From NCBI GenBank assembly GCA_964373795.1, contig CAYJVY010000004.1, positions 1 to 32,000 on the forward strand: 32,000 bases of DNA. The letters are read 5' to 3'. A model generated the notes under the pieces. The model was not told where the DNA came from, did no database searches, and worked only from the letters and a program-made list of their open reading frames with translations. Made by a program: the position numbers and the translations under genes. The stretch comes from an uncultured archaeon. Lineage in GTDB: Archaea; Iainarchaeota; Iainarchaeia; Iainarchaeales; DATDZZ01. Of the stretch, positions 5,363 through 30,078 are shown one piece after another (position 1 is the stretch's first letter; each line of letters opens with the position of its first letter).

Positions 5363-6397
5363 TTAAGCGTTTTTTTCTACTGGTTTCTTTTTGGTTTCTT
5401 CTTTTACTACTTCAAGCAATTTTTCTGATAATTCTTTTCCAAACAATGAAGCTATTTCTTGATTGTGTTCTTTAATGAATTGCTCTGCATCAATTTTTTT
5501 CTTTTCAGGAATTGAAGTACTTGCTAGTTTGCTTGAAATACTGCTTGCAAGCCTGGATAACTCCATTGGAAAAATCATTTTAGTCGCTTTTCCTTCACTC
5601 ATTTTTTCTAAGGCTTTAATGTAATAATAAGATAATGCTTTGTCATCTAATTCTGCTGCTGCTTCTCTTACAGCCAGTATTTCTGCTTTGCTTGCCTCTG
5701 CTCTTTGAAGTCTCGCCTTTTTTTCTTGTTCTGCAGCTCTATGACCATGCATTGCATCTAAAACAGTTTTAGGAATACTAATGTCTTGAATTTGAACTTT
5801 ATCTACTTGAATTCCCCAATCCTTTGAAACAGATTCAAGTTGAGTGTAAAGAGTTTTATTTACTTCATCAACGTTTGCAATAATTTTATTTAAAGGAAAT
5901 AGTCCAACTACATCTCTGATTGCAGCTACAATGTATTTTTTTGAAGCCTCTTTATAGTCTTGAATATTTAAAACAGATGCTTTAACTGAATCAGGATTAG
6001 AGCCAACTTTCATAAAAATTAATGCATCAACTTTTATTTCAATGTTTTCAGTTGTTAAAATATTTTGAGGAGGAACATCAATTGTTTGCACTCTTAAATC
6101 CACTTTTTTAAAGGTTTCAATAAAAGGAATCATAAAAAACCATCCAGGCCCTGAAACCCTATTAAATCTCCCAAAACGCATTACAACTGCTCTTTCATAT
6201 GCCTCTAACTGAATTAACACATCATAGAAATAGAAAACTAATACAATTAGAATTGCTGCAGCAATTAAAGCAAAATAGTTAATGAAAAATTCTTTAAAAG
6301 AAATAAATGCATAAACAGCTAACAAAATCAATGCAATTATTACAATGAAAATCATTTTCTTCATTTGATTTGTTTTAATAGTTGTTTTTCCAGTCAT
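5363..6397 (-). CDS. SPFH/band-7 (stomatin/prohibitin-like) membrane protein
   Basis: N-terminal TM helices, then a YERAVVMRFGRF...GPGWFFMIPFIE...VDLR SPFH core, followed by an Ala/Glu-rich coiled coil. Confidence 0.85.
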   Translation of the reverse strand: MTGKTTIKTNQMKKMIFIVIIALILLAVYAFISFKEFFINYFALIAAAILIVLVFYFYDVLIQLEAYERAVVMRFGRFNRVSGPGWFFMIPFIETFKKVDLRVQTIDVPPQNILTTENIEIKVDALIFMKVGSNPDSVKASVLNIQDYKEASKKYIVAAIRDVVGLFPLNKIIANVDEVNKTLYTQLESVSKDWGIQVDKVQIQDISIPKTVLDAMHGHRAAEQEKKARLQRAEASKAEILAVREAAAELDDKALSYYYIKALEKMSEGKATKMIFPMELSRLASSISSKLASTSIPEKKKIDAEQFIKEHNQEIASLFGKELSEKLLEVVKEETKKKPVEKNA

Positions 6398-6425
6398 TTA
6401 AAACTCACAATCCATTTTTCCAACA

Positions 6426-6492
6426 ACGCTTCGCACACGCCGCGTGATTCATATACGCCGGGTTTCGCGCTCGCCAAGCGTGACGGCGTAGA
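6426..6492 (+). ncRNA. Candidate small structured RNA with a K-turn (box C/D-like) closing motif
   Basis: By hand count, 42 of 67 nt are G/C, inside an AT-rich divergent spacer. ACGCCG (6437-6442) pairs with CGGCGT (6484-6489). This stem is followed by CGU-GAUU on one strand and preceded by GUGA on the other, which is the arrangement needed for tandem sheared G.A pairs. TTTAAAA lies about 25 nt upstream. Confidence 0.3.
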
Positions 6493-6497
6493 GATAA

Positions 6498-6530
6498 ATT
6501 AATATAATTAGATACTTATTAATATAATTA
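6498..6530 (+). promoter_or_regulatory. Duplicated ATTAATATAATTA box (TATA-like) directly upstream of the DUF373 gene
   Basis: An exact 13-nt direct repeat occurs at 6498-6510 and 6518-6530. The second copy abuts the ATG at 6531, and the first is at TATA-box distance for a leaderless transcript. Confidence 0.3.
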
Positions 6531-7772
6531 ATGGCTGTTAAGACAGGAAATGTATTAGTTTTATGCATTGACAGAGACAATGATTTGGGTAGAAAAGCCA
6601 AGGTTCAAGGCCCAATAATTGGAATAGAAGCAAATATTGATGCAGTAATAAAGTTAGGAATAGCTGATCCAACTGATTCAGATACTAATGCAATTCTTGC
6701 TGCTTTAAAAAAATTTAATGAAGCAAAAAAGTTGTATAAAAACGTTGAAATAGCTACTTTAACTGGCAAGGAAAATGTTAAAGTTTTTGCAACTGAGGCA
6801 GACAAAATTTTAAGCGAACAACTTGATAAGGTTTTGGAAAGGTTTCCAGCTGACTCATTTATTTTTGTTTCAGATGGAGCAGAAGATGATGCAGTTCTTC
6901 CAATTATTACTTCTAGAATTAAGAAAATTAATTCAAAAGAAATAGTCATAGTTAAACAAGCAAAGCAAGTTGAATCAACTTTTTACACAATTAAAGAAGT
7001 ATTAAAAGATCCTTTAGTTGCAAAAATTGTTTTCGGCATTCCTGGAATAATTTTGTTAATAATTCTTGCTTTAGGGTCAATTGGAACTCAAGTAGTTTTA
7101 GGAGCACTAGGAATTTTTTTGCTTTTATATGGATTTGGATTACTTGAATGGAGTGTGAAAACATTTAATGACTTGGTTACCCCTATTTCAACTCAAAGAG
7201 TTAGCTTTGTTTTCTACATTGGAGCATTTTTAATATTCTTTTTTGGAATTTTTTCAGCAATAATTACTTTTAATCAAAAAGCTGGACAAGAAGAATTAAT
7301 TAGAGGAATTGAATCAGTTTTTCAAATGCTTTTGTTTATGATGATTTCAAATATTTCAATAAATATTGCTAAATCCATTGACGGCGTTTATTTGAAAAAA
7401 GCCTTTAAATTAGGGTATTTTTTTAGATCAGCTTTTGCAGGAATATTAATTTACGTTATACTTGATTCAGGAAAACAAGTTTTCTTAGCAAATGCTGACT
7501 TAAACTTATTTGTTTTAACTTTAATTGGATCAGCAATAACTTTTGTAATTGCCGATCAAGTTGCAAAAGTAATTGATGTAAGAGGAAAAATAACTAAATT
7601 ATTAATTGGCTTGCCTGTTTATTCAAGTGAGGGAAACTGGATTGGAAAAGTTAATTCAATTAATAGTGAAAAAGAATTAATTGAAATCAAGGAAATTAAG
7701 TCAAAAAAATTATTAAAGTTAAAGAAAAACCAGTTTTTATTCAAAGAAGGAAGCCTTTTTTTAACTGTTTAA
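6531..7772 (+). CDS. DUF373 family membrane protein
   Basis: N-terminal VLVLCIDRDNDLGRKAKVQGPIIG...LGIADPTDSDTNAI is the signature I associate with archaeal DUF373. It is followed by about 6 TM helices and a small C-terminal soluble domain. Confidence 0.68.
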   Translation: MAVKTGNVLVLCIDRDNDLGRKAKVQGPIIGIEANIDAVIKLGIADPTDSDTNAILAALKKFNEAKKLYKNVEIATLTGKENVKVFATEADKILSEQLDKVLERFPADSFIFVSDGAEDDAVLPIITSRIKKINSKEIVIVKQAKQVESTFYTIKEVLKDPLVAKIVFGIPGIILLIILALGSIGTQVVLGALGIFLLLYGFGLLEWSVKTFNDLVTPISTQRVSFVFYIGAFLIFFFGIFSAIITFNQKAGQEELIRGIESVFQMLLFMMISNISINIAKSIDGVYLKKAFKLGYFFRSAFAGILIYVILDSGKQVFLANADLNLFVLTLIGSAITFVIADQVAKVIDVRGKITKLLIGLPVYSSEGNWIGKVNSINSEKELIEIKEIKSKKLLKLKKNQFLFKEGSLFLTV

Positions 7773-10700
7773 TGAATTACTTTTTTTCCAACTTTTTTTA
7801 ATGCAGTAGACAAGTTAAGGTTAACGAATTTTTTTAACTGCTTCAATAAACGTTGTTTAGTGGAAGATTTTACAAAAGCGTTTTCCAAAACTTCATTCAA
7901 TGTTGTTACTGGAATAATTTTAATTTTTTTACTCATTTCAGGAGTTAAAACAATGTCTTCAAAATTTGATTTAGGAATAATTACTTCTTTAAAGCCTGCA
8001 ACAATTGCCGCGCTTACTTTAGCTGTAACTCCTCCTACAGGTAAAACTTCTCCTCTAACTGACAAGCTTCCAGTCATTGCCAAGCCTTGTTTAATTGGAA
8101 TTCTTTCCAAAGCAGAGATTACAGCTGTTGCAACTGAAACACTTGCAGAATCTCCTTCAACTCCTTCATAGGTTTGCAAAAACTGTATATGCAAGTCATG
8201 CTTTGAAATATCTTTTCCAGAAATTTTTTTAATTAAAGCTGAAACATTTTGAACAGCTTCTTTAGCTATTTCTCCAAGCTTTCCAGTAGCAATTAATTTT
8301 CCTTCAGCAGTACTAGAAGCAGGCGCTATTTCTGCTTCAATAGGCAATACTAATCCAGCATCCCCTGCTCCTGAAACAGCTAAACCATTAACTCTTCCAA
8401 CTGCTTGTCCTTCCCTTAAATAAACATCGTAATCTTTTTTTTGCTCAATTATTTTTGAAACCATTTGCTGTTCAAGAGTTCGAGCAGACATTTTTGCTTC
8501 AAACACGTCTTGCTCTAAAACAAGTGCATGCCCTTTTTCTTTAGCAATATCTCCTGCAGCTCTAATCAAGCCTCCTAAGTCTCTTAACTTTAAAGTTAAC
8601 TTGAATTTTCTTTGAGCTCTTTTTCTTGCCTCAAAAATAATTGCTTCAACTGCTTCTCTAGCAAAATGAGGAATTTTTCCATCCTTTGAAACCTCTTGAG
8701 CAACAAATTGCACTACTTTATTTCTATTCTCTTTATTATCAGGCATATCTAAATTCATGTAAATTTCATATCCATATCCCCTAATTCTTGAACGCAAAGC
8801 AGGATGAACATGTTTTAAGTCTTCATAGTTTCCAGCTGCAACTAAAACAAAGTCACATGGAACTGGATCAGTTCTAGTCATTGCTCCAGAAGACATTTCG
8901 CTTTGCCCAGTAATTGAATACTTTTTTTCTTGCATTGCAGTAAGCAATTCTTGTTGAGCTTTTTGAGGCAAAGTAGCAATTTCATCAATAAATAAAACTC
9001 CTCCATTAACTCTGTGAATTAATCCAGGCTCTACTCTTAAATGAGGCGGAGTTCCTAAACCTCCTGAATTTGCTGCTAAAATGTTATTAGCAATTAAGTT
9101 TCCTGATTCAGTTGTTATGTTGTAAATAATTTCATCAACCATTAGTTCATTATCTGAAAAACTAAATTCTTTTTTTTCAAGCATTTGCATTAAAGAAGAT
9201 GAAACCCTTAAAGTTGAGTTAATGGAGAAATTAGTTTTCCCTTTTTCAAGCAAGTTATTATAGTTTATTTTTTTCCACTCACTCATTTCTTTTAACGCAT
9301 TATTTAGTCTTTCAATTTTTTTATTTGAATAACTTAAAGGAATAAATTTTATAAATCGTGCAAGATTTTCTAGTTCTTTAGAAATGCATAACTTCCAAAT
9401 AAATCTTGAAGGCCTAAACTCATTTTCATAAATGTTGTTTGTTTTGATGCCATAAGAATTTAAATATCTTTTAACTTGAGACAAAAACTGGATTCTATTT
9501 TCTTTTAATTCTTTTGATCCAGCTAAGGCAACATCAAAAGTATTAAAATATTTGTGTTTTTGTGAAAACTTTGGAGAACATAATTCGTTTCCAAGAAATG
9601 CTCCAAAAAATTCTTGCAAAGATTTTTCATTCAAATAAATCCATGAAGGAATAATTAATTCCTTGTTTTTTCTGCCAAGCGGGGCTCCTAAAGCCAAAAA
9701 AAATCTAATTAATGTTCGATTAGTGCAAATTACATTTGCAGCTGTTTCATTAATACCGCTCTTCATTTCCCTTAAATTACTTTTAATTTCTTCACCAAAT
9801 AATTCAATTAAATCTTGTTTGTAATCTGAAAGTGATTCCCTTTCAGCTGAAGACAAAAAAATTCCATTCAAATTAGAAAAAACTCCTCCATCTCCAAAAG
9901 TCGTGCCAAGAATTCTAGCAACTAAATAAACTTTTGAGTGAGAAGTTGTTAAAGGCAATAAATTTTTCTTATTTAATAACTCAATTACTTTAACTGGATC
10001 GGGCTTTGAATTGGTTAAATGCCACCACCTAACCCTTCCCTTAGGAATCTCCAATTTTTTAGCCAATTTTTTATATCCAAAAAAAGGATTCTCCTTTTTG
10101 AGTTTTAAATACTCATAATAAGAGTGAGTTGACTCCTGGTCTTTTTTAGAAAAAGTTTGAATTATATCTTCTTCATCCAAAATTATTTCATCATGTAAAA
10201 AAAGTTTTGAATCAGGAAATATTTTTTCTGCTTCAACCCATTCAGTATTGGAAAAAATCTTATGTTCAGGAGTTAAAATTAATCTGTTACTATTTTTTCG
10301 AATAGAGATCATTTTTCCTGTATAAGGACGTCTATTAACAATGAAAAGTTTAACTGGTTGAATTACTCCCTCTTTAAATCCAAGAATTTTAATATCTTCT
10401 GTATCTGGAAGAATTAAACCTTCATATCCTTTTTCATTTATTTCAACTAAATTAGGGTATTTGAAAATTAAATTATCCACTAATTTTTTGATCAACATAG
10501 GTTGAACTTTATTTTTTTCATTAACCAAATAAACTGCTGTATCAGGAAAAAAAGTCTGAAGCGGATCATGCCTTACATCACCAAGTAATGATCCAGCTCT
10601 TGAACCAGTGCCATCAGCAAAAGGAGCTATTTTTTTTCCTGCATTATCAATTAAAAGTTTTGGTGTTTGCCTTGTTTCTCTTGGCTTTATTTGCGAACCT

Positions 10701-11176
10701 AAAGCTACTCCAATAATTAAAAATCCTCCTAATAGTAAAGTAGCTGCATAAATTACGTCTGAAATCCATTTCAAGCTCCACATAACGTAATTCAAAATAA
10801 ACCATGCAAAAGGCAAAAGCAATCCAATTAATCTAGCATTATCTTCAGCTGCCTTTGAATCCAACCTCATTCTGTGAATAATTTTTTTTCCTTCGCCTGC
10901 ACTCACTACTTTAACTCTTGGATTATTTGAATCAGTTGAATTAGGGTAAATTAAAATGTCATTCAATTTATTGAATGGCAGGATTTCAGCCATTGCTTGA
11001 GCTAACATTGATTTTCCAGTTCCAGGCAATCCAACTAATAAAACATTTCTTTTCTGAACAGCTGCTTTTCTAATTAATTCAACTGCAATGTCTTGTCCAA
11101 TGATTTGTTCAATTAATCCTTTTGGAACAGGAATTTCTTGAGTGCTCTTAAAATCTTTTGAAATCTCTACAACCAT
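7769..11176 (-). CDS. lonB: Archaeal membrane-bound Lon protease (LonB), interrupted by an intein
   Basis: - Walker A is GLPGTGKS.
- Two TM helices are inserted in the AAA+ module.
- GDVRHDPLQ and SGGLGTPPHLRVEPG...VLFIDEI are contiguous in other LonB proteins but separated here by 496 aa.
- The C-terminal protease domain has GDSASV.
- The extein total is 639 aa. Confidence 0.9.
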   Translation of the reverse strand: MVVEISKDFKSTQEIPVPKGLIEQIIGQDIAVELIRKAAVQKRNVLLVGLPGTGKSMLAQAMAEILPFNKLNDILIYPNSTDSNNPRVKVVSAGEGKKIIHRMRLDSKAAEDNARLIGLLLPFAWFILNYVMWSLKWISDVIYAATLLLGGFLIIGVALGSQIKPRETRQTPKLLIDNAGKKIAPFADGTGSRAGSLLGDVRHDPLQTFFPDTAVYLVNEKNKVQPMLIKKLVDNLIFKYPNLVEINEKGYEGLILPDTEDIKILGFKEGVIQPVKLFIVNRRPYTGKMISIRKNSNRLILTPEHKIFSNTEWVEAEKIFPDSKLFLHDEIILDEEDIIQTFSKKDQESTHSYYEYLKLKKENPFFGYKKLAKKLEIPKGRVRWWHLTNSKPDPVKVIELLNKKNLLPLTTSHSKVYLVARILGTTFGDGGVFSNLNGIFLSSAERESLSDYKQDLIELFGEEIKSNLREMKSGINETAANVICTNRTLIRFFLALGAPLGRKNKELIIPSWIYLNEKSLQEFFGAFLGNELCSPKFSQKHKYFNTFDVALAGSKELKENRIQFLSQVKRYLNSYGIKTNNIYENEFRPSRFIWKLCISKELENLARFIKFIPLSYSNKKIERLNNALKEMSEWKKINYNNLLEKGKTNFSINSTLRVSSSLMQMLEKKEFSFSDNELMVDEIIYNITTESGNLIANNILAANSGGLGTPPHLRVEPGLIHRVNGGVLFIDEIATLPQKAQQELLTAMQEKKYSITGQSEMSSGAMTRTDPVPCDFVLVAAGNYEDLKHVHPALRSRIRGYGYEIYMNLDMPDNKENRNKVVQFVAQEVSKDGKIPHFAREAVEAIIFEARKRAQRKFKLTLKLRDLGGLIRAAGDIAKEKGHALVLEQDVFEAKMSARTLEQQMVSKIIEQKKDYDVYLREGQAVGRVNGLAVSGAGDAGLVLPIEAEIAPASSTAEGKLIATGKLGEIAKEAVQNVSALIKKISGKDISKHDLHIQFLQTYEGVEGDSASVSVATAVISALERIPIKQGLAMTGSLSVRGEVLPVGGVTAKVSAAIVAGFKEVIIPKSNFEDIVLTPEMSKKIKIIPVTTLNEVLENAFVKSSTKQRLLKQLKKFVNLNLSTALKKVGKKVIH
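9068..10555 (-). mobile_element. Intein with LAGLIDADG-type homing endonuclease inside lonB (residues 208-703)
   Basis: Block A-like TFFPDTAVYL, block B LILTPEHKIF (TxxH), two LAGLIDADG-like motifs (LVARILGTTFGDGGV and FFGAFLGNELCS), and C-terminal GNLIANNILAAN followed by Ser +1. Boundaries were checked at the codon level: ACT at 10553-10555 and AAT at 9068-9070. Confidence 0.8.
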
Positions 11177-23537: not shown

Positions 23538-23678
23538 TAAAAAAATGTTTTACTAGAATAAATAACTTGGTTTTGAACTGCATTAAAAGCTTTAAGCCGG
23601 TATATAATGCCTTATGCAAGCCTGTTTAGAAAAACACAAGCTTTAAATTTCTTTAATTTATTTTTTTATTACATTTAA

Positions 23679-25043
23679 ATGAATTCAACTGAATTAAAAA
23701 AAAAAGCTTTAGCTTATCATGGCGGAAGATTTAAAGGCAAATTAAAAGTAATGCCTTTGAAAAGCATTTCAAACCAAGAAGAATATGCTTTAGCTTACAC
23801 TCCAGGAGTAGCTTTTCCTTGCCTTGAAATAAAAGAAAACCCTGAAGAAGTTTACAGGTATACTTCTAAAGGAAATTTAATGGCAGTTGTATCAAACGGT
23901 TCTTCAGTTTTGGGTTTGGGAAGCATTGGCCCTGAAGCAGGTTTACCTGTAATGGAAGGAAAAGCAGTTTTATTGAAAAAATTTGCAGGAATTGATGCAA
24001 TTGGTTTATGTATTTCTAAAACACTTGATTCAAAAAGAAAAACTTTAGTAAAAGAATTTGTTTCATGCGTGGAAAAACTCGAACCAAGTTTTGGAGCAAT
24101 TAATTTAGAAGACATTGCTGCTCCTGAATGCTTTCAAGTTGAACAAGAACTGCGAAAGAAAATGAATATCCCTGTAATGCATGACGATCAACATGGAACT
24201 GCAATTGTAACAGGAGCAGCTTTACTGAATTCAATCAAACTTGCAGAAAAAAAGTTGTCAGAAATAAAATTGGTTTTTTCTGGAGCAGGAGCAGCAGCAA
24301 TTGCTTCAGCAAAATTCTTTGAAATGCTTGGAGTGAAAAAAGAAAATATTTTAATGTGTGATTCTAAAGGAGTTGTTTCCACTACGCGAAAAGATTTAGA
24401 TGAATTCAAACAAGAATTTGCCTCCAATACAAATGCTAAGACTTTATCTGATGCTTTGAAAGGCACAGATGTTTTTTTCGGTCTTTCAAAGCCAGGAATT
24501 GTTTCAAAGGAAATGATTAAGTCAATGGCTGAAAAAGCAATTGTTTTTGCAATGGCAAACCCAGTGCCTGAAATCCTTCCAGAAGAAGCCTTAGAAGGAG
24601 GGGCATTTATTGTAGGCACTGGACGTTCAGATAGAGCAAATCAAATTAATAACTCCCTTGGGTTTCCTGGAATTTACAGAGGAGCTTTAGATGTCCGCGC
24701 TAAAGAAATTAATGAAGAAATGAAACTAGCTGCTTCACATGCTTTAGCTAATTTATTGCAAGAAAAAATTCCTAAAGACGTCAAAGAATTTTTGAATAAA
24801 GCTTATCCTAGAGCAAAAGAAAAAGAATTGTTTGAAAAAGAAATTCCTTTATCTCCTGGCTTGATTCTTCCACGAATTTTAGATCCAAGAATTGTTCCAC
24901 GCATTGCACGAGAAGTAGCAAAGGCAGCAATGCTTTCAGGCGTTGCACGAGAAAAAATCCTTGATTTAGAAAAATACGAAAAAGAAACAACACAATTCAT
25001 TGAATTCACTAATGAAAACATTCAAGTCTGTTTAAAAATTTAA
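23679..25043 (+). CDS. NAD(P)-dependent malic enzyme (oxaloacetate-decarboxylating malate dehydrogenase)
   Basis: YTPGVA, HDDQHGTAIV, the Rossmann motif FSGAGAAAIA, and FAMANPVPEI are typical of short prokaryotic malic enzymes. Confidence 0.9.
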   Translation: MNSTELKKKALAYHGGRFKGKLKVMPLKSISNQEEYALAYTPGVAFPCLEIKENPEEVYRYTSKGNLMAVVSNGSSVLGLGSIGPEAGLPVMEGKAVLLKKFAGIDAIGLCISKTLDSKRKTLVKEFVSCVEKLEPSFGAINLEDIAAPECFQVEQELRKKMNIPVMHDDQHGTAIVTGAALLNSIKLAEKKLSEIKLVFSGAGAAAIASAKFFEMLGVKKENILMCDSKGVVSTTRKDLDEFKQEFASNTNAKTLSDALKGTDVFFGLSKPGIVSKEMIKSMAEKAIVFAMANPVPEILPEEALEGGAFIVGTGRSDRANQINNSLGFPGIYRGALDVRAKEINEEMKLAASHALANLLQEKIPKDVKEFLNKAYPRAKEKELFEKEIPLSPGLILPRILDPRIVPRIAREVAKAAMLSGVAREKILDLEKYEKETTQFIEFTNENIQVCLKI

Positions 25044-25110
25044 AATAACTAACCCCTCCAACTAAAGTCCAAAGTATCCAGAGTTCATTTTTAAGAAATA
25101 AATTAACATT

Positions 25111-25312
25111 CGCCGAGCAGCCGGCGAGGCTGAAGCACTGTTCAGCCGGCAAAGCTGAAGTGACCAGCCCGCGAGGCTGAGTGCCCACGTGGGCATCGCG
25201 CTTGCCGCGCGAGACTACAGCTGAAGGGTCACGTGACCCCTCGCACTCGACGGGCGTGACGTCGCAGCCGACAAAGCTGAGTCAGCAGTTGACAAAACTG
25301 GAACCTGGTGCC
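25111..25312. other. GC-rich island made of about 10 consecutive mini-hairpins / degenerate direct repeats (candidate structured RNA or protein-binding array)
   Basis: - By hand count, 131 of 202 nt are G/C, between two convergent AT-rich genes.
- The repeated unit CAGCC-N5-GGCTGA(A)G, or the variant CAGC-N7-GCTGA(A)G, starts at 25118, 25143, 25165 and 25265. A degenerate copy starts at 25283.
- Two perfect 14-bp palindromes are present: TGCCCACGTGGGCA (25182-25195) and GGGTCACGTGACCC (25226-25239).
- Two further hairpins are present: TCGCGC-ttgcc-GCGCGA (25196-25212) and CGACG-ggcgtga-CGTCG (25248-25264). Confidence 0.6.
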
Positions 25313-25334
25313 TAAAACTTCATAACAACTATTG

Positions 25335-25994
25335 TTAAGGTAACAAGTTTTCTAATACAAAAGGAATTATTTTTTGCTCAGCTTTACGCAGGTTTTCTGT
25401 AAAAGTTGAAGCACTTAAACCTTTTCTTTTTGCTAATTCTTTAATGTTGGCTTTTTTTGGAAACTCGTAATACCCTTGTTCAAACGCGTATCGAATTAGC
25501 TCTTTCTGTTTCTCAGGCAAAGAAGGAACTGCATGTGGAATGAAGAAATCCTTTAAAGGTTCTTGAATAATTGACTCTACTTCAAAATGAACAAATTTCT
25601 CCATTTTTTTCAGCATTTTTGTAAGGCTTTCTTTTTTCCATGCACCGAAAGTAACTGTTTGAAAGCCTTGAGGAAAAACTGTTAAGGGTTTGACAAACAT
25701 TATTTCAGGGCTAATAAATAACTGTAAATGACTTTTAGCTGAACTCTTATGAGTGTAAACATAAAAGTCTCCATAGCTTTCAAAATTAGTAATGCTTGGA
25801 TTTTTTTTCACTGCAGCAAAATAGGCTTTTTTGTTTTCTTCAGAACCAATAACGTAATGCACAAAATCAAAGAAAATAAATTTGCCTTTCTTGAAGTGAT
25901 TAATTGGAAAACTTGTAAAAACGATGTTGAATTTTTTTGCATACTCTAAAGCATAAGAATTTTCATGCCAGTATTTGAGTTTTAAAATCCACAT
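25335..25994 (-). CDS. HTH_10 (bacterio-opsin-activator-type) transcription regulator (copy 1)
   Basis: The C-terminal LPEKQKELIRYAFEQGYYEFPKKANIKELAKRKGLSASTFTENLRKAEQKIIPFVL matches the HTH_10 pattern. I trimmed the start from 26372 to the Met at 25994, where MWILKLKYWHE aligns with the paralog start MWVLKAKIFHE. Confidence 0.7.
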   Translation of the reverse strand: MWILKLKYWHENSYALEYAKKFNIVFTSFPINHFKKGKFIFFDFVHYVIGSEENKKAYFAAVKKNPSITNFESYGDFYVYTHKSSAKSHLQLFISPEIMFVKPLTVFPQGFQTVTFGAWKKESLTKMLKKMEKFVHFEVESIIQEPLKDFFIPHAVPSLPEKQKELIRYAFEQGYYEFPKKANIKELAKRKGLSASTFTENLRKAEQKIIPFVLENLLP

Positions 25995-26076: not shown

Positions 26077-26106
26077 AATATATTGTTTTTATTCTCGGGG
26101 AGAAAA

Positions 26107-26406
26107 ATGAATTTAAAATACTGTCCTAATTGTGGAAAAATAGGGGACTTTGTTTCAGTTAAAGGAATACAAAGATGCGAGTCATGCAAAGTAGTTGGAA
26201 AACCATTAGAAGGAACAATTGATGAAATTAATGCTTTTGCAAAAAAAATAAAAGCAGGAAAACCAATTTCAAGAAATAATTCAGCAATTGATTCAATTTC
26301 AAGCCAAGCAATTACTTCAAAAACAAGTACTTCAAATCCTTCTTCAAATAATGAATGGAAAGAAAAATTCAAGTCATTAAAAGGAAAAATAATTGGTGCG
26401 GACTAG
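26107..26406 (+). CDS. Small zinc-ribbon protein with a Ser/Thr/Asn-rich tail
   Basis: MNLKYCPNCGK...(12)...CESC forms a four-Cys ribbon, and GGGGAG lies upstream of the ATG. It occupies the region that the ORF track assigns to an implausible N-terminal extension of the opposite-strand gene. Confidence 0.5.
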   Translation: MNLKYCPNCGKIGDFVSVKGIQRCESCKVVGKPLEGTIDEINAFAKKIKAGKPISRNNSAIDSISSQAITSKTSTSNPSSNNEWKEKFKSLKGKIIGAD

Positions 26407-27906: not shown

Positions 27907-28581
27907 ATGTGGGTTTTAAAAGCAAAAATTTTTCATGAAGACTCTTTTGGAATAAAATACTGCAAAAAATACAAACTTACAATGCATGGATATCCTTTAT
28001 CAATTACTCCGCAAGGCAAGGAAGTAATTGTTTCAGTATGGCATTTCATTCAAGGCGAGAAAAAAAATATTAAAAAATATTATGCTGAATTAAAAAACGA
28101 AAAAAAATTATTTGATATTGAAATAAATGGCAACATATTGATTTACTCGTTTTCGGTTTCCAAAAACAACTCACATTGGAGAGCATATGCTAATCCAGCT
28201 GTCGTATTCTTAAAACCTGCAATCATAAATTCAAAAGGAGATGAATTCATAGAAATAGGGGCATGGAAAAAAGAAGTTTTAACAAAATTTATAGAAAGCG
28301 CTTCAAAGAAAATGGAAATAAATGTTTCAAGCCTGAAAAAGGAAAAAGCTCCAGATATATTTATTCCTTTTTCAATGCCAAAACTATCAAGCAAGCAAAG
28401 GATTTGCCTGGATTTGGCATACGAAAATGGTTATTATTTATATCCAAGAAAAATAACTTTGGAAGAACTTGCCAAAAAAGCAAAAATTTCTTATACCACT
28501 TTCCAAGAACATCTAAGAAAAGCAGAAACAAAAATAATTCCTTTTTTCCTGGAACAAACCAAAGCCGACAAACATCGGTGA
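27907..28581 (+). CDS. HTH_10 (Bat-type) transcription regulator (copy 2)
   Basis: The C-terminal LSSKQRICLDLAYENGYYLYPRKITLEELAKKAKISYTTFQEHLRKAETKIIPFFL matches the HTH_10 pattern. It is followed 33 nt later by the co-oriented swivel-domain gene. TGA stop. Confidence 0.75.
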   Translation: MWVLKAKIFHEDSFGIKYCKKYKLTMHGYPLSITPQGKEVIVSVWHFIQGEKKNIKKYYAELKNEKKLFDIEINGNILIYSFSVSKNNSHWRAYANPAVVFLKPAIINSKGDEFIEIGAWKKEVLTKFIESASKKMEINVSSLKKEKAPDIFIPFSMPKLSSKQRICLDLAYENGYYLYPRKITLEELAKKAKISYTTFQEHLRKAETKIIPFFLEQTKADKHR

Positions 28582-28614
28582 AACGACTTTTAACATAGAA
28601 ACTGGAAATTATTT

Positions 28615-30078
28615 ATGACAAAAAATAACTGGATTGTTTTAGCATCAGGAAAAGGCCATATTCCATTTTTTGCATATAGTGCATTCATGCATGCCATTGG
28701 AAAACCAATAAAAGAGTTTCCTGGAATAAAAAACATTTCAAAATATAGGAGAGTTCTAAACATTTCTTTTGTTGAAGAAAAAGATTTTCAAGCTCTTTGG
28801 AAATCTCTTGAAAAAGCAGAAAAAGAAAAACCAGGACTTCTGTTAAAAATCGGCAAGGTGTGGGAAAAAAAGTTAGTGGATTTGAAAAAATTTGTTGATA
28901 ATAATTCTGGAAAAAAATTCAAGGAAATGAACAACAAACAACTTTTGGCGTTTTTTAAAGAATTTTTTTCTGTCTGTGAAAAAGCACTGGAATTCGAATT
29001 GTTTTACTATGGAGCTAATGCATTTCTGCCTGAAAAATTATTCAAAGAATTGAATGAAATAATTGAAAACAAAAGTAAGATGAACGATGCCTTACTGGAG
29101 CTGACAGAAATTGATAAAGAGATTTCAGCAACAAAGGAAAGGAAAAAACTAATTGAATTGACTAGGTTTGTAAAAAAACACGGAAAAAATTTCGAAAACC
29201 CTGAAGTGAAAAAAAGAATTGAAAAACACTTGAAAGAGTTTGCATTTCTTGGATATTATTGGTGTGGCAGAAAACCATACAATTCAGAGAATATTAAGGA
29301 AAGAATTACAGAATACTTGGAAAAGGATTTAGAAAAAGAAATTCAAATCTGCGGAAAATGGAAAAAGGTTAAAACTAAAGTCAAAAGAATTTCGAAAAAA
29401 TATTCTTTGCCAAAAAGTATTCTTTTGAAAGCAGAAGCTGTAAGACATTATTCATATGTTTCTACTTTGGCGAATGAAATTTTTGGAAGCTATATGAGAT
29501 TTGGAATGCAAAAATTATTTGAAGAAATTGCAAAACGACTGTATATTTCTGTAGACCAAATTTTGGAGGCAAACAAGGAAGAAATAGTTGATGCTCTAGA
29601 GAAAGGAAAAATTTCAAAAGAATTGCAAAAAGAATTACAGGAACGGACTAAAGATTATTATTTTGAGTTCTATGACAAGAAAATTTTATTTTTTGACAGA
29701 AAAGAAATTGAAAAAGTGAATAAAGAAATGCAGCAAGAGAGCACTGAATTAAAAAAATTAAAACAAGTGCAAGGCTTAAGTGCAAAAAAAGGAATTGTAA
29801 AAGGAAAAGCAAGAGTAATTCTTTCACCACAAGAATTACATTCTGTGAAAAGAGATGAAATACTTGTTTCAATAAACACTACTCCTGTATTTGTCCCTGC
29901 AATGGAAAAAGTTAAAGCAATAGTAACAGATGAAGGAGGATTATTATCTCATGCAGCAATTGTTTCACGAGAACTAGGAAAGCCATGCATTGTTGGAACA
30001 AAGATTGCAACAAAGGTTTTCACTAACGGAGAATTAATTGAAGTGAATGCCACAAAAGGAATAGTTAAAAGGCTTTGA
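28615..30078 (+). CDS. PEP-utilizer swivel (phosphohistidine) domain protein with an unrecognised helical N-terminal region (copy 2)
   Basis: C-terminal GKARVILSP...DEILVSINTTPVFVPAM...AIVTDEGGLLSHAAIVSRELGKPCIVGT. The internal HLKEFAFLGYYW segment aligns with YLEKFAFMGFCT of copy 1. TGA stop falls at the same relative C-terminus as the paralog. Confidence 0.75.
   Translation: MTKNNWIVLASGKGHIPFFAYSAFMHAIGKPIKEFPGIKNISKYRRVLNISFVEEKDFQALWKSLEKAEKEKPGLLLKIGKVWEKKLVDLKKFVDNNSGKKFKEMNNKQLLAFFKEFFSVCEKALEFELFYYGANAFLPEKLFKELNEIIENKSKMNDALLELTEIDKEISATKERKKLIELTRFVKKHGKNFENPEVKKRIEKHLKEFAFLGYYWCGRKPYNSENIKERITEYLEKDLEKEIQICGKWKKVKTKVKRISKKYSLPKSILLKAEAVRHYSYVSTLANEIFGSYMRFGMQKLFEEIAKRLYISVDQILEANKEEIVDALEKGKISKELQKELQERTKDYYFEFYDKKILFFDRKEIEKVNKEMQQESTELKKLKQVQGLSAKKGIVKGKARVILSPQELHSVKRDEILVSINTTPVFVPAMEKVKAIVTDEGGLLSHAAIVSRELGKPCIVGTKIATKVFTNGELIEVNATKGIVKRL

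Follow-up and report, generated by a model that had tools for sequence, protein, structure and literature searches.

A GC-rich mosaic of short palindromes between converging genes of a DPANN archaeon: a possible palindromic repeat element

The spacer between two converging genes of a DPANN archaeon holds a 202-nt block of DNA, here called island A, that is built from short perfect palindromes set back to back. It lies in a 32,000-nucleotide stretch of contig CAYJVY010000004.1 (the window, positions 1 to 32,000), and the host is close to a Diapherotrites metagenome-assembled genome (MAG). The palindrome-rich character of island A is real and far beyond chance. We tentatively read it as a lineage-specific, modular, GC-rich non-coding palindromic element, comparable to the repetitive extragenic palindromic (REP) sequences and their mosaic clusters (BIMEs) or to mitochondrial GC clusters, which forms a small family with a second island, island B, 19 kb away. 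DPANN genomes are tiny, tightly packed and AT-rich, and unneeded DNA is expected to go from them quickly; a block of perfect hairpins 200 nt long, with 65% G+C and a relative at another place in the genome, therefore needs an explanation.

Architecture of island A

Composition and hairpin density: exactly 131 of the 202 bases between 25111 and 25312 are G or C (65%), as a preliminary description of this DNA had counted, against 30.5% in the window as a whole. Only two stretches of the window reach at least 55% G+C in 60-nt windows, 25098-25315 and 6411-6501. Island A lies outside genes and is flanked by two stop codons, those of a malic enzyme gene and an HTH_10 regulator gene whose 3' ends converge on it, which confirms the position first given for it. 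Perfect hairpins of at least 5 bp with loops of 3-8 nt cover 141 of its 202 nt; in 1000 dinucleotide shuffles the cover was 22.5±18 nt, with a maximum of 93. Likewise, 11 of the 14 matches to a GC-rich 5-bp hairpin in the window fall inside island A. Ten perfect hairpins of at least 5 bp were found, each 14-20 nt long (about 11 short perfect hairpins in the whole mosaic), and some nine of them are able to coexist. At the left end two hairpin registers exclude one another because neighbouring hairpins share arms. The minimum-energy fold has 6-7 hairpin loops and a z-score of -3.6 on the plus strand and -3.05 on the minus strand. All stems are local, 4-7 bp long and perfectly Watson-Crick paired, and there are no long-range helices. 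A comparison of the two strands by the energy of each hairpin yields no consistent preference, and one of G-U with A-C pairs in each hairpin, made for strand inference, had a mixed outcome that settles nothing. The hairpins listed in the preliminary description are all present at their coordinates, and its picture of a chain of repeated short hairpin modules is upheld.

Module types: island A is a mosaic of three kinds of module, (a) CAGC units, (b) CACGTG palindromes and (c) TCGCRC modules (Table 1). The CAGC units have the general form CAGC(C)-N5-7-(G)GCTGA(A)G. Exact matches to CAGC-N7-GCTGA start at 25118, 25143, 25165 and 25265 and occur nowhere else in the 32 kb, which leaves every promoter region of the window without a site. 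The first three matches belong to a tandem array with units at 25118-25135, 25143-25160 and 25165-25181, and between 25118 and 25179 successive half-sites, CAGC and GCTG in turn, are 11 nt apart save for one step of 14 nt. Five repeat units had been proposed originally; the four just named are exact, and the fifth, placed at 25283, is degenerate, its best form being the last unit of Table 1. Start-to-start spacings of 25, 22, 100 and 18 nt put the units in different reading frames. CACGTG occurs at two sites only in the window, and each is the core of one of the perfect 14-bp palindromes that the preliminary description had reported. Both palindromes have GCTGA(A)G immediately before them. Three of their five stem pairs differ between the two, and in each of these pairs both bases are changed; both palindromes are still perfect.

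The three module types follow one another in the order (a), (b), (c) twice, at 25165-25217 and at 25218-25264, which suggests that a unit of about 45-50 nt was duplicated. The second copy of module (c) overlaps a further hairpin, CGACG-GGCGTGA-CGTCG (25248-25264); both this hairpin and the TCGCGC/GCGCGA hairpin of the first copy had been noticed before, and both are confirmed. When the leftmost hairpin (25111-25126) is read on the minus strand, a T-rich tract comes next. This is the one match to an intrinsic-terminator pattern near island A (minus strand, stem 25127-25110, tail ATGTTAATTT), where 0.6±0.8 matches are expected. Termination in archaea needs no hairpins.

A related island 19 kb away

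Island B lies in the spacer between the divergent genes for an SPFH/Band_7 protein (5363-6397, minus strand) and a DUF373 protein (6531-7772, plus strand). The motif TCGCRC-N4-9-GCGYGA has four plus-strand matches in the window, two in each island and none elsewhere, with an expectation of 0; the 8-mer GCGTGACG is found at 6478 and 25254 only. Island B aligns with 25193-25267 of island A in the same order and on the plus strand, with a score of 117 against 84.3±9.9 for shuffled sequences, a score that 5 of 1000 shuffles reached. The TCGCRC motif was defined with three of its four copies already in view, and the independent evidence is therefore the fourth copy and the alignment test only. A dispersed family had been hinted at before, from an 11-mer of 25196-25206 that recurs in the GC-rich island at 6426-6492. 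The recurrence is there (TCGCGCTCGCC at 6465-6475), but the link is stronger than one 11-mer: since a pair of modules recurs in island B with order and strand preserved, and the four-copy motif and the alignment agree with this, the family hint is supported.

Two further observations concern the surroundings of these modules. In island B the two TCGCRC...GCGYGA modules flank TATATGAA (6447-6456, minus strand) and end 10 nt before a ATAAATTAATATAA box upstream of the DUF373 gene, so that they could conceivably overlap both promoters. Separately, a contig of another DPANN archaeon (L084, Logan run SRR18053868) carries within positions 1-105 a GC-rich, hairpin-rich patch of about 60 nt, directly ahead of the TATA box of a 34%-identical HTH_10 homologue. 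This patch aligns weakly with the plus strand of island A (score 121 against 91.6±11.2 for shuffles; reached by 2 of 300) and has GCGAGACTA and the series AAGTGA...CAGC...GAGTGC in common with it.

Table 1. Positions of the two islands, the parts of island A and adjacent features in the window.
Feature	Position	Strand	Remarks
Island A, whole	25111-25312	none	65% G+C; about 11 short perfect hairpins
Hairpin CGCCG-AGCAGC-CGGCG	25111-25126	none	overlaps first CAGC unit; alternative registers
Degenerate tandem array	25118-25187	+	3.1 copies; period 22-25 nt; consensus CAGCCGGCGAGGCTGAAGTGAC
Bridging hairpin GGCTGAA-GCACTG-TTCAGCC	25128-25147	none	arms from neighbouring units; incompatible with units 1 and 2
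Perfect 14-bp palindrome TGCCCACGTGGGCA	25182-25195	none	GCTGAG just before
TCGCGC-TTGCC-GCGCGA	25196-25212	+	TCGCRC...GCGYGA module, copy 1
CAGCTGAAG	25218-25225	+	loopless CAGC/GCTGA(A)G unit; start of second higher-order module
Perfect 14-bp palindrome GGGTCACGTGACCC	25226-25239	none	
TCGCAC-TCGACGG-GCGTGA	25241-25259	+	TCGCRC...GCGYGA module, copy 2
Unit CAGC-CGACAAA-GCTGAG	25265-25281	+	
Unit CAGTT-GACAA-AACTG	25286-25300	+	degenerate last unit
Island B	6422-6496	+	two TCGCRC...GCGYGA modules, 6431-6447 and 6465-6483
TATA-like box ATAAATTAA	25098-25106	+	5 nt left of island A
T5 tract	25087-25091	+	after malic enzyme stop codon, before island A
Malic enzyme gene	23679-25043	+	
HTH_10 regulator gene	25335-25994	-	real product 219 aa

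Integrity of the assembly

Two other sequencing runs yielded independent Logan contigs whose sequences match the two AT/GC junctions of island A at 100% identity. One of these contigs (L081) reaches 25170 and another (L082) begins at 25231, so the central 60 nt of the island (25171-25230) are covered by this assembly alone. Island B is spanned intact and without differences by a 12.6-kb contig from another run. The gene order around island A is the same as in L083, the contig of the related Diapherotrites MAG. A chimeric join at island A is unlikely, because its junctions are reproduced and the flanking gene order is preserved. With a blastn search of the island against plasmids, phages and E. 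coli genomes that returned nothing, these results leave an assembly or sequencing artefact, be it a chimeric join or a fold-back, scarcely credible as the source of the island. What such an account has in its favour, beside the singly covered centre, is that three Logan contigs end inside the islands (at 25170, 25231 and 6489) and that a fourth, L084, starts in its own GC-rich hairpin patch (1-68). Contig ends at these places point to a drop in coverage, sequence variation or repeats. The start of the window may itself coincide with a contig end: Logan contig L089 (run ERR3478686) starts exactly at window position 1 and differs at 4 of 12594 positions.

Island A in a variable slot

The closest comparison is with L083, in which the HTH_10 gene has 85.6% DNA identity to that of the window (95% for the protein) and the PEP-utilizers gene 81.7%. 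In L083 the slot between the two is occupied by a 344-aa PEP-utilizers paralogue, with no island; its counterpart in the window (23538-25334) contains the malic enzyme gene, on the opposite strand, and island A. The closest homologue of the malic enzyme, 72% identical, is encoded on a DPANN-like, AT-rich contig (L085), and the spacer downstream of that gene is AT-rich and without an island. All other matches are about 57% identical and mostly from Lentisphaerota/Victivallales, so that the malic enzyme gene was probably acquired horizontally; its composition, at 33-37% G+C, is host-like. A scan of genome contigs with the malic enzyme returned relatives of at most 55% identity, mostly bacterial, and no genome with the same gene order. 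Since the content of the slot differs in L083 and no island follows the L085 homologue, island A is, to judge by these sequence comparisons, in a variable slot prone to recombination and is conserved neither with the malic enzyme gene nor with the HTH_10 gene. No convincing target-site duplication was found at island A, and the whole content of the slot differs in L083.

Comparison with known families

Rfam at gathering thresholds gave no match in the whole window, and ARAGORN found no tRNA or tmRNA gene there. In a permissive Rfam search (E<=10) the best match of island A was chrB-a, with 24.4 bits below a threshold of 43.9, and neither island A nor island B had a credible family. The earlier statement that island A is no tRNA, signal recognition particle (SRP) RNA or RNase P RNA is upheld and extends to the other Rfam families. 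By eye, no K-turn, C/D-box, H/ACA, SRP helix-8 or RNase P motif could be fitted to island A. The longest open frame in the island, 90 codons on the minus strand, had one spurious match (E=3e-4) in a HMMER search against 1.84 billion proteins. Exact look-ups returned no record for the open reading frames (ORFs) that overlap island A, for the 219-aa HTH_10 product or for RFC-L.

Several named elements were considered and rejected. Integron attC sites are reported in Archaea as well (PMC9668308), and island A is like them in being a structured palindromic element right after a possibly horizontal gene. It differs in that the R'' (RYYYAAC) and R' (GTTRRRY) boxes are absent from both strands of 25000-25449, that it folds into 6-7 hairpin loops instead of one imperfect hairpin (~57-141 nt), that it is longer (~200 nt), and that there is neither an integrase nor a cassette array. 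A CRISPR array, taken as direct repeats of 20-50 bp with unique spacers of like length, does not agree with 3.1 copies of 19-nt units whose starts are 22-25 nt apart, with only 3-6 nt between them. The parS consensus is a 16-bp palindrome, TGTTNCACGTGAAACA; island A has only its CACGTG core, with arms GCC/GGC and GGT/ACC. A replication origin at island A was set aside in favour of the spacer that adjoins the orc1/cdc6 gene, where the origin is likely to be.

Weighing the explanations

Palindromic repeat element: island A resembles REP/BIME elements in its short GC-rich palindromes, its mosaic clustering, its place outside genes and its varying presence among relatives, and its short palindromes can form stem-loops as can the 20-40 bp units of REPs. 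The preferred location of REPs is downstream of genes that are co-directional or converging (PMC3733652), and island A is downstream of two converging genes. A second likeness is to the GC clusters of fungal mitochondria (yeast GC42, M/G/V classes), which are also patchy palindromic islands of composite modules in AT-rich spacers; in AT-rich mitochondrial genomes such GC-rich clusters merge and shuffle (PMC4478555). Those clusters belong to organelles, whereas island A is in a cellular archaeal genome and has no sequence similarity to them. Evidence for the palindromic-element reading comes from the palindrome density of the islands, the distinct palindrome families without spacers between them, the existence of two islands, the presence or absence of island A among relatives and the lack of a match to a known RNA family, tRNA or attC site. 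Perfect stems, arms shared by neighbouring hairpins that thereby exclude one another, and the lack of a consistently favoured strand are traits that suit DNA palindromes better than an RNA fold shaped by evolution. Island A would have originated by local duplication, merging and shuffling of hairpin modules, or by insertion, and may have persisted because an insertion of this kind is tolerated in the space between two converging genes. For any transcript of island A, the simplest form would be a 3' extension of the HTH_10 mRNA that stops in the T-rich tract to the left of 25111. Transcribed REPs are thought to act as RNA hairpins (PMC3733652), and the stable stem-loops of island A, once transcribed, would stop 3'-to-5' degradation of the RNA and protect the converging genes against read-through, as bacterial REPs do.

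A number of results weigh against this reading. Only two copies are present in about 34 kb of genome (the 32 kb of the window and a 2-kb extension), and REPs are most abundant in GC-rich genomes (PMC12306157), whereas the host is a DPANN archaeon with 30% G+C. The recurring flank of the units is GCTGA(A)G, not a GTAG or CGTC tag; GTAG is absent from the plus strand of island A and occurs once on the minus strand (as CTAC at 25215), and CGTC occurs once. No Y1_Tnp or other match indicative of a transposase, an integrase or a REP-associated tyrosine transposase (RAYT) was found among the scanned window ORFs of at least 90 aa. A scan of JGI metagenomes and one of IMG/VR for two adjacent CAGC units found nothing similar; the pattern was the CAGC unit, not the double TCGCRC core, and the only two matches, both in the metagenome scan, were unrelated (an AAREAER coding repeat and other GC-rich DNA). 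IMG/VR scans with the exact core, the CACGTG module and the double TCGCRC module had chance matches in GC-rich phages only. A covariance model (R1) built from the cores of islands A and B detected no member of the family beyond these two in the 48.7 kb of DPANN sequence that it was run on. Island B, unlike island A, sits between divergent genes. The three double changes that keep the CACGTG palindromes paired hint at selection on pairing, not neutral drift. Finally, the sequence has a polarity that a purely DNA-level palindrome does not need: GCTGA occurs five times on the plus strand against two for TCAGC, and plus-strand loops are rich in purines and in A. Island A is thus best understood as an element that works like the REP/BIME type; it is not assigned to that family, because the GTAG/CGTC tag is absent and two loci only are known, against the high copy number that is the hallmark of REPs.

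The polarity and the paired changes also speak for a rather unlikely alternative, that island A is an independent non-coding RNA gene of about 200 nt, probably on the plus strand, whose hairpin-plus-GCUGA(A)G modules would offer multiple sites to an RNA-binding protein, or would make it a scaffold or a sponge in the manner of CsrB/RsmZ, with island B as a shorter paralogue. In AT-rich archaeal genomes a GC-rich island in a spacer frequently turns out to be an RNA gene; of the 73 GC-rich regions of P. abyssi, 51 were known non-coding RNA genes (PMC3124441). Island A shares with such genes (from Klein/Eddy-type screens, or the sRk RNAs of P. abyssi) the position in an AT-rich spacer and the strong fold, seen in the plus-strand z-score, and island B folds better on the plus strand. 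The TATA-like ATAAATTAA would be a possible candidate promoter for a plus-strand transcript; the same 9-mer stands at two likely promoters, once immediately behind island B and once, in reversed orientation, 18-26 nt ahead of the ATG of the malic enzyme gene, but TATA-like strings are common at 30% G+C, and no T-tract follows island A on the plus strand. The archaeal genes of this kind are conserved with covariation, whereas island A is absent from the equivalent sites of the relatives examined (L083 and L085) and has no Rfam model, the sub-threshold chrB-a match apart. It has no homologues and, for that reason, no covariation. An RNA would also have to do with perfect local stems, several of them mutually exclusive, whose summed energies slightly favour the minus strand. 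The preliminary description had leaned towards a structured RNA gene, and this is where it loses ground, as no positive evidence for one emerged. We regard as unlikely the bolder version in which both islands are genes of an undescribed DPANN small-RNA family, accessory scaffolds or sponges with GCUGA(A)G and UCGCRC...GCGYGA docking modules that move with variable slots.

Protein binding to DNA and the remains of a foreign donor are the other accounts to be compared with a palindromic repeat element. It is quite unlikely that island A would be an array for dimeric proteins at inverted repeats of 15-19 bp (CAGCC-N5-GGCTG, TCGCRC-N5-7-GCGYGA and the CACGTG palindromes), serving as an operator cluster, a decoy or a centromere-like site. 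Spacers of 5-7 bp are typical of dimeric helix-turn-helix operators, the CAGC/GCTG half-sites alternate regularly, and half-sites made of G and C only would give high specificity against a background of 30% G+C. The neighbourhood includes several regulator genes (two HTH_10, one Lrp/AsnC and one RHH), the orc1/cdc6 gene is about 6.5 kb off, and in the divergent-promoter region of island B the modules flank TATATGAA just upstream of the likely DUF373 TATA box. Island A itself, however, is bordered by 3' ends on both sides and has no gene to regulate, strings together at least three unrelated palindrome types, shares with parS the core only, and has its motifs in no other promoter region of the window. 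The case for the adjacent HTH_10 protein as the binder is weakened by a genome that encodes a 95%-identical HTH_10 protein and has no island at the site. Neutral debris from a GC-rich donor, brought along when the malic enzyme gene replaced its predecessor, is very unlikely. Island A does lie at the edge of the segment 23538-25334 that replaces the relative's gene, and the malic enzyme gene looks horizontal, with its best non-DPANN matches in Lentisphaerota/Victivallales; no homologue of island A was found anywhere searched, and the string CAGCCCGCGAGGCTGA can arise in Ala/Arg/Glu-rich coding repeats such as that of L087. Random GC-rich DNA falls short of such a palindrome density, though, the units are in different reading frames, and the longest open frame has no match beyond the spurious one. 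A neutral flank as old as the malic enzyme gene should have decayed too, because that gene is already host-like in composition, and a related island exists at an unrelated locus.

Other features of the window

The T5 tract between the malic enzyme stop codon and island A is a possible candidate for an archaeal terminator of the malic enzyme mRNA. HTH_10 genes of about 220 aa are paired with genes for PEP-utilizers (mobile-domain) proteins twice in the window, at 25335-25994 and at 27907-30078, and in L083 the order is HTH_10, the 344-aa paralogue and then a 490-aa PEP-utilizers paralogue; from gene order, the pair looks like a conserved DPANN regulator-enzyme module. The LonB protease gene (7769-11176, 1135 aa) appears to carry an intein, with weak Intein_splicing and LAGLIDADG_3 matches between the halves of its AAA+ domain. 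Past the right end, at 5422-6702 of contig L091 (about 31633-32913 in window coordinates), lies the orc1/cdc6 gene. The spacer beside it has TTCCTGCGGGAATTTTCACCGGAAATTT repeats that resemble origin-recognition boxes and probably contains the replication origin, at a distance of about 6.5 kb from island A. A 107-aa ORF (26083-26406, plus strand) with zinc-ribbon-like CxxC...CxxC motifs and no Pfam match converges on the gene for the RFC large subunit, overlaps its stop codon by 4 nt and is called as a gene in a Logan contig.

Implications

Island A is real and statistically striking and matches nothing known; it is most likely a variant of a palindromic repeat element, and a novel accessory RNA is a substantial remaining possibility. 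In practical terms, short-read contigs of the host tend to break at the islands, which affects MAG completeness. If the islands are transcribed and function as RNA, they would represent a new accessory RNA family. If island A is a self-propagating palindromic element, then elements like REP/BIMEs or mitochondrial GC clusters would extend to DPANN archaea, in a form with no usual GTAG tag and so far no known transposase, and island A would mark a recombination-prone slot in which a probably bacterial malic enzyme gene was taken up.

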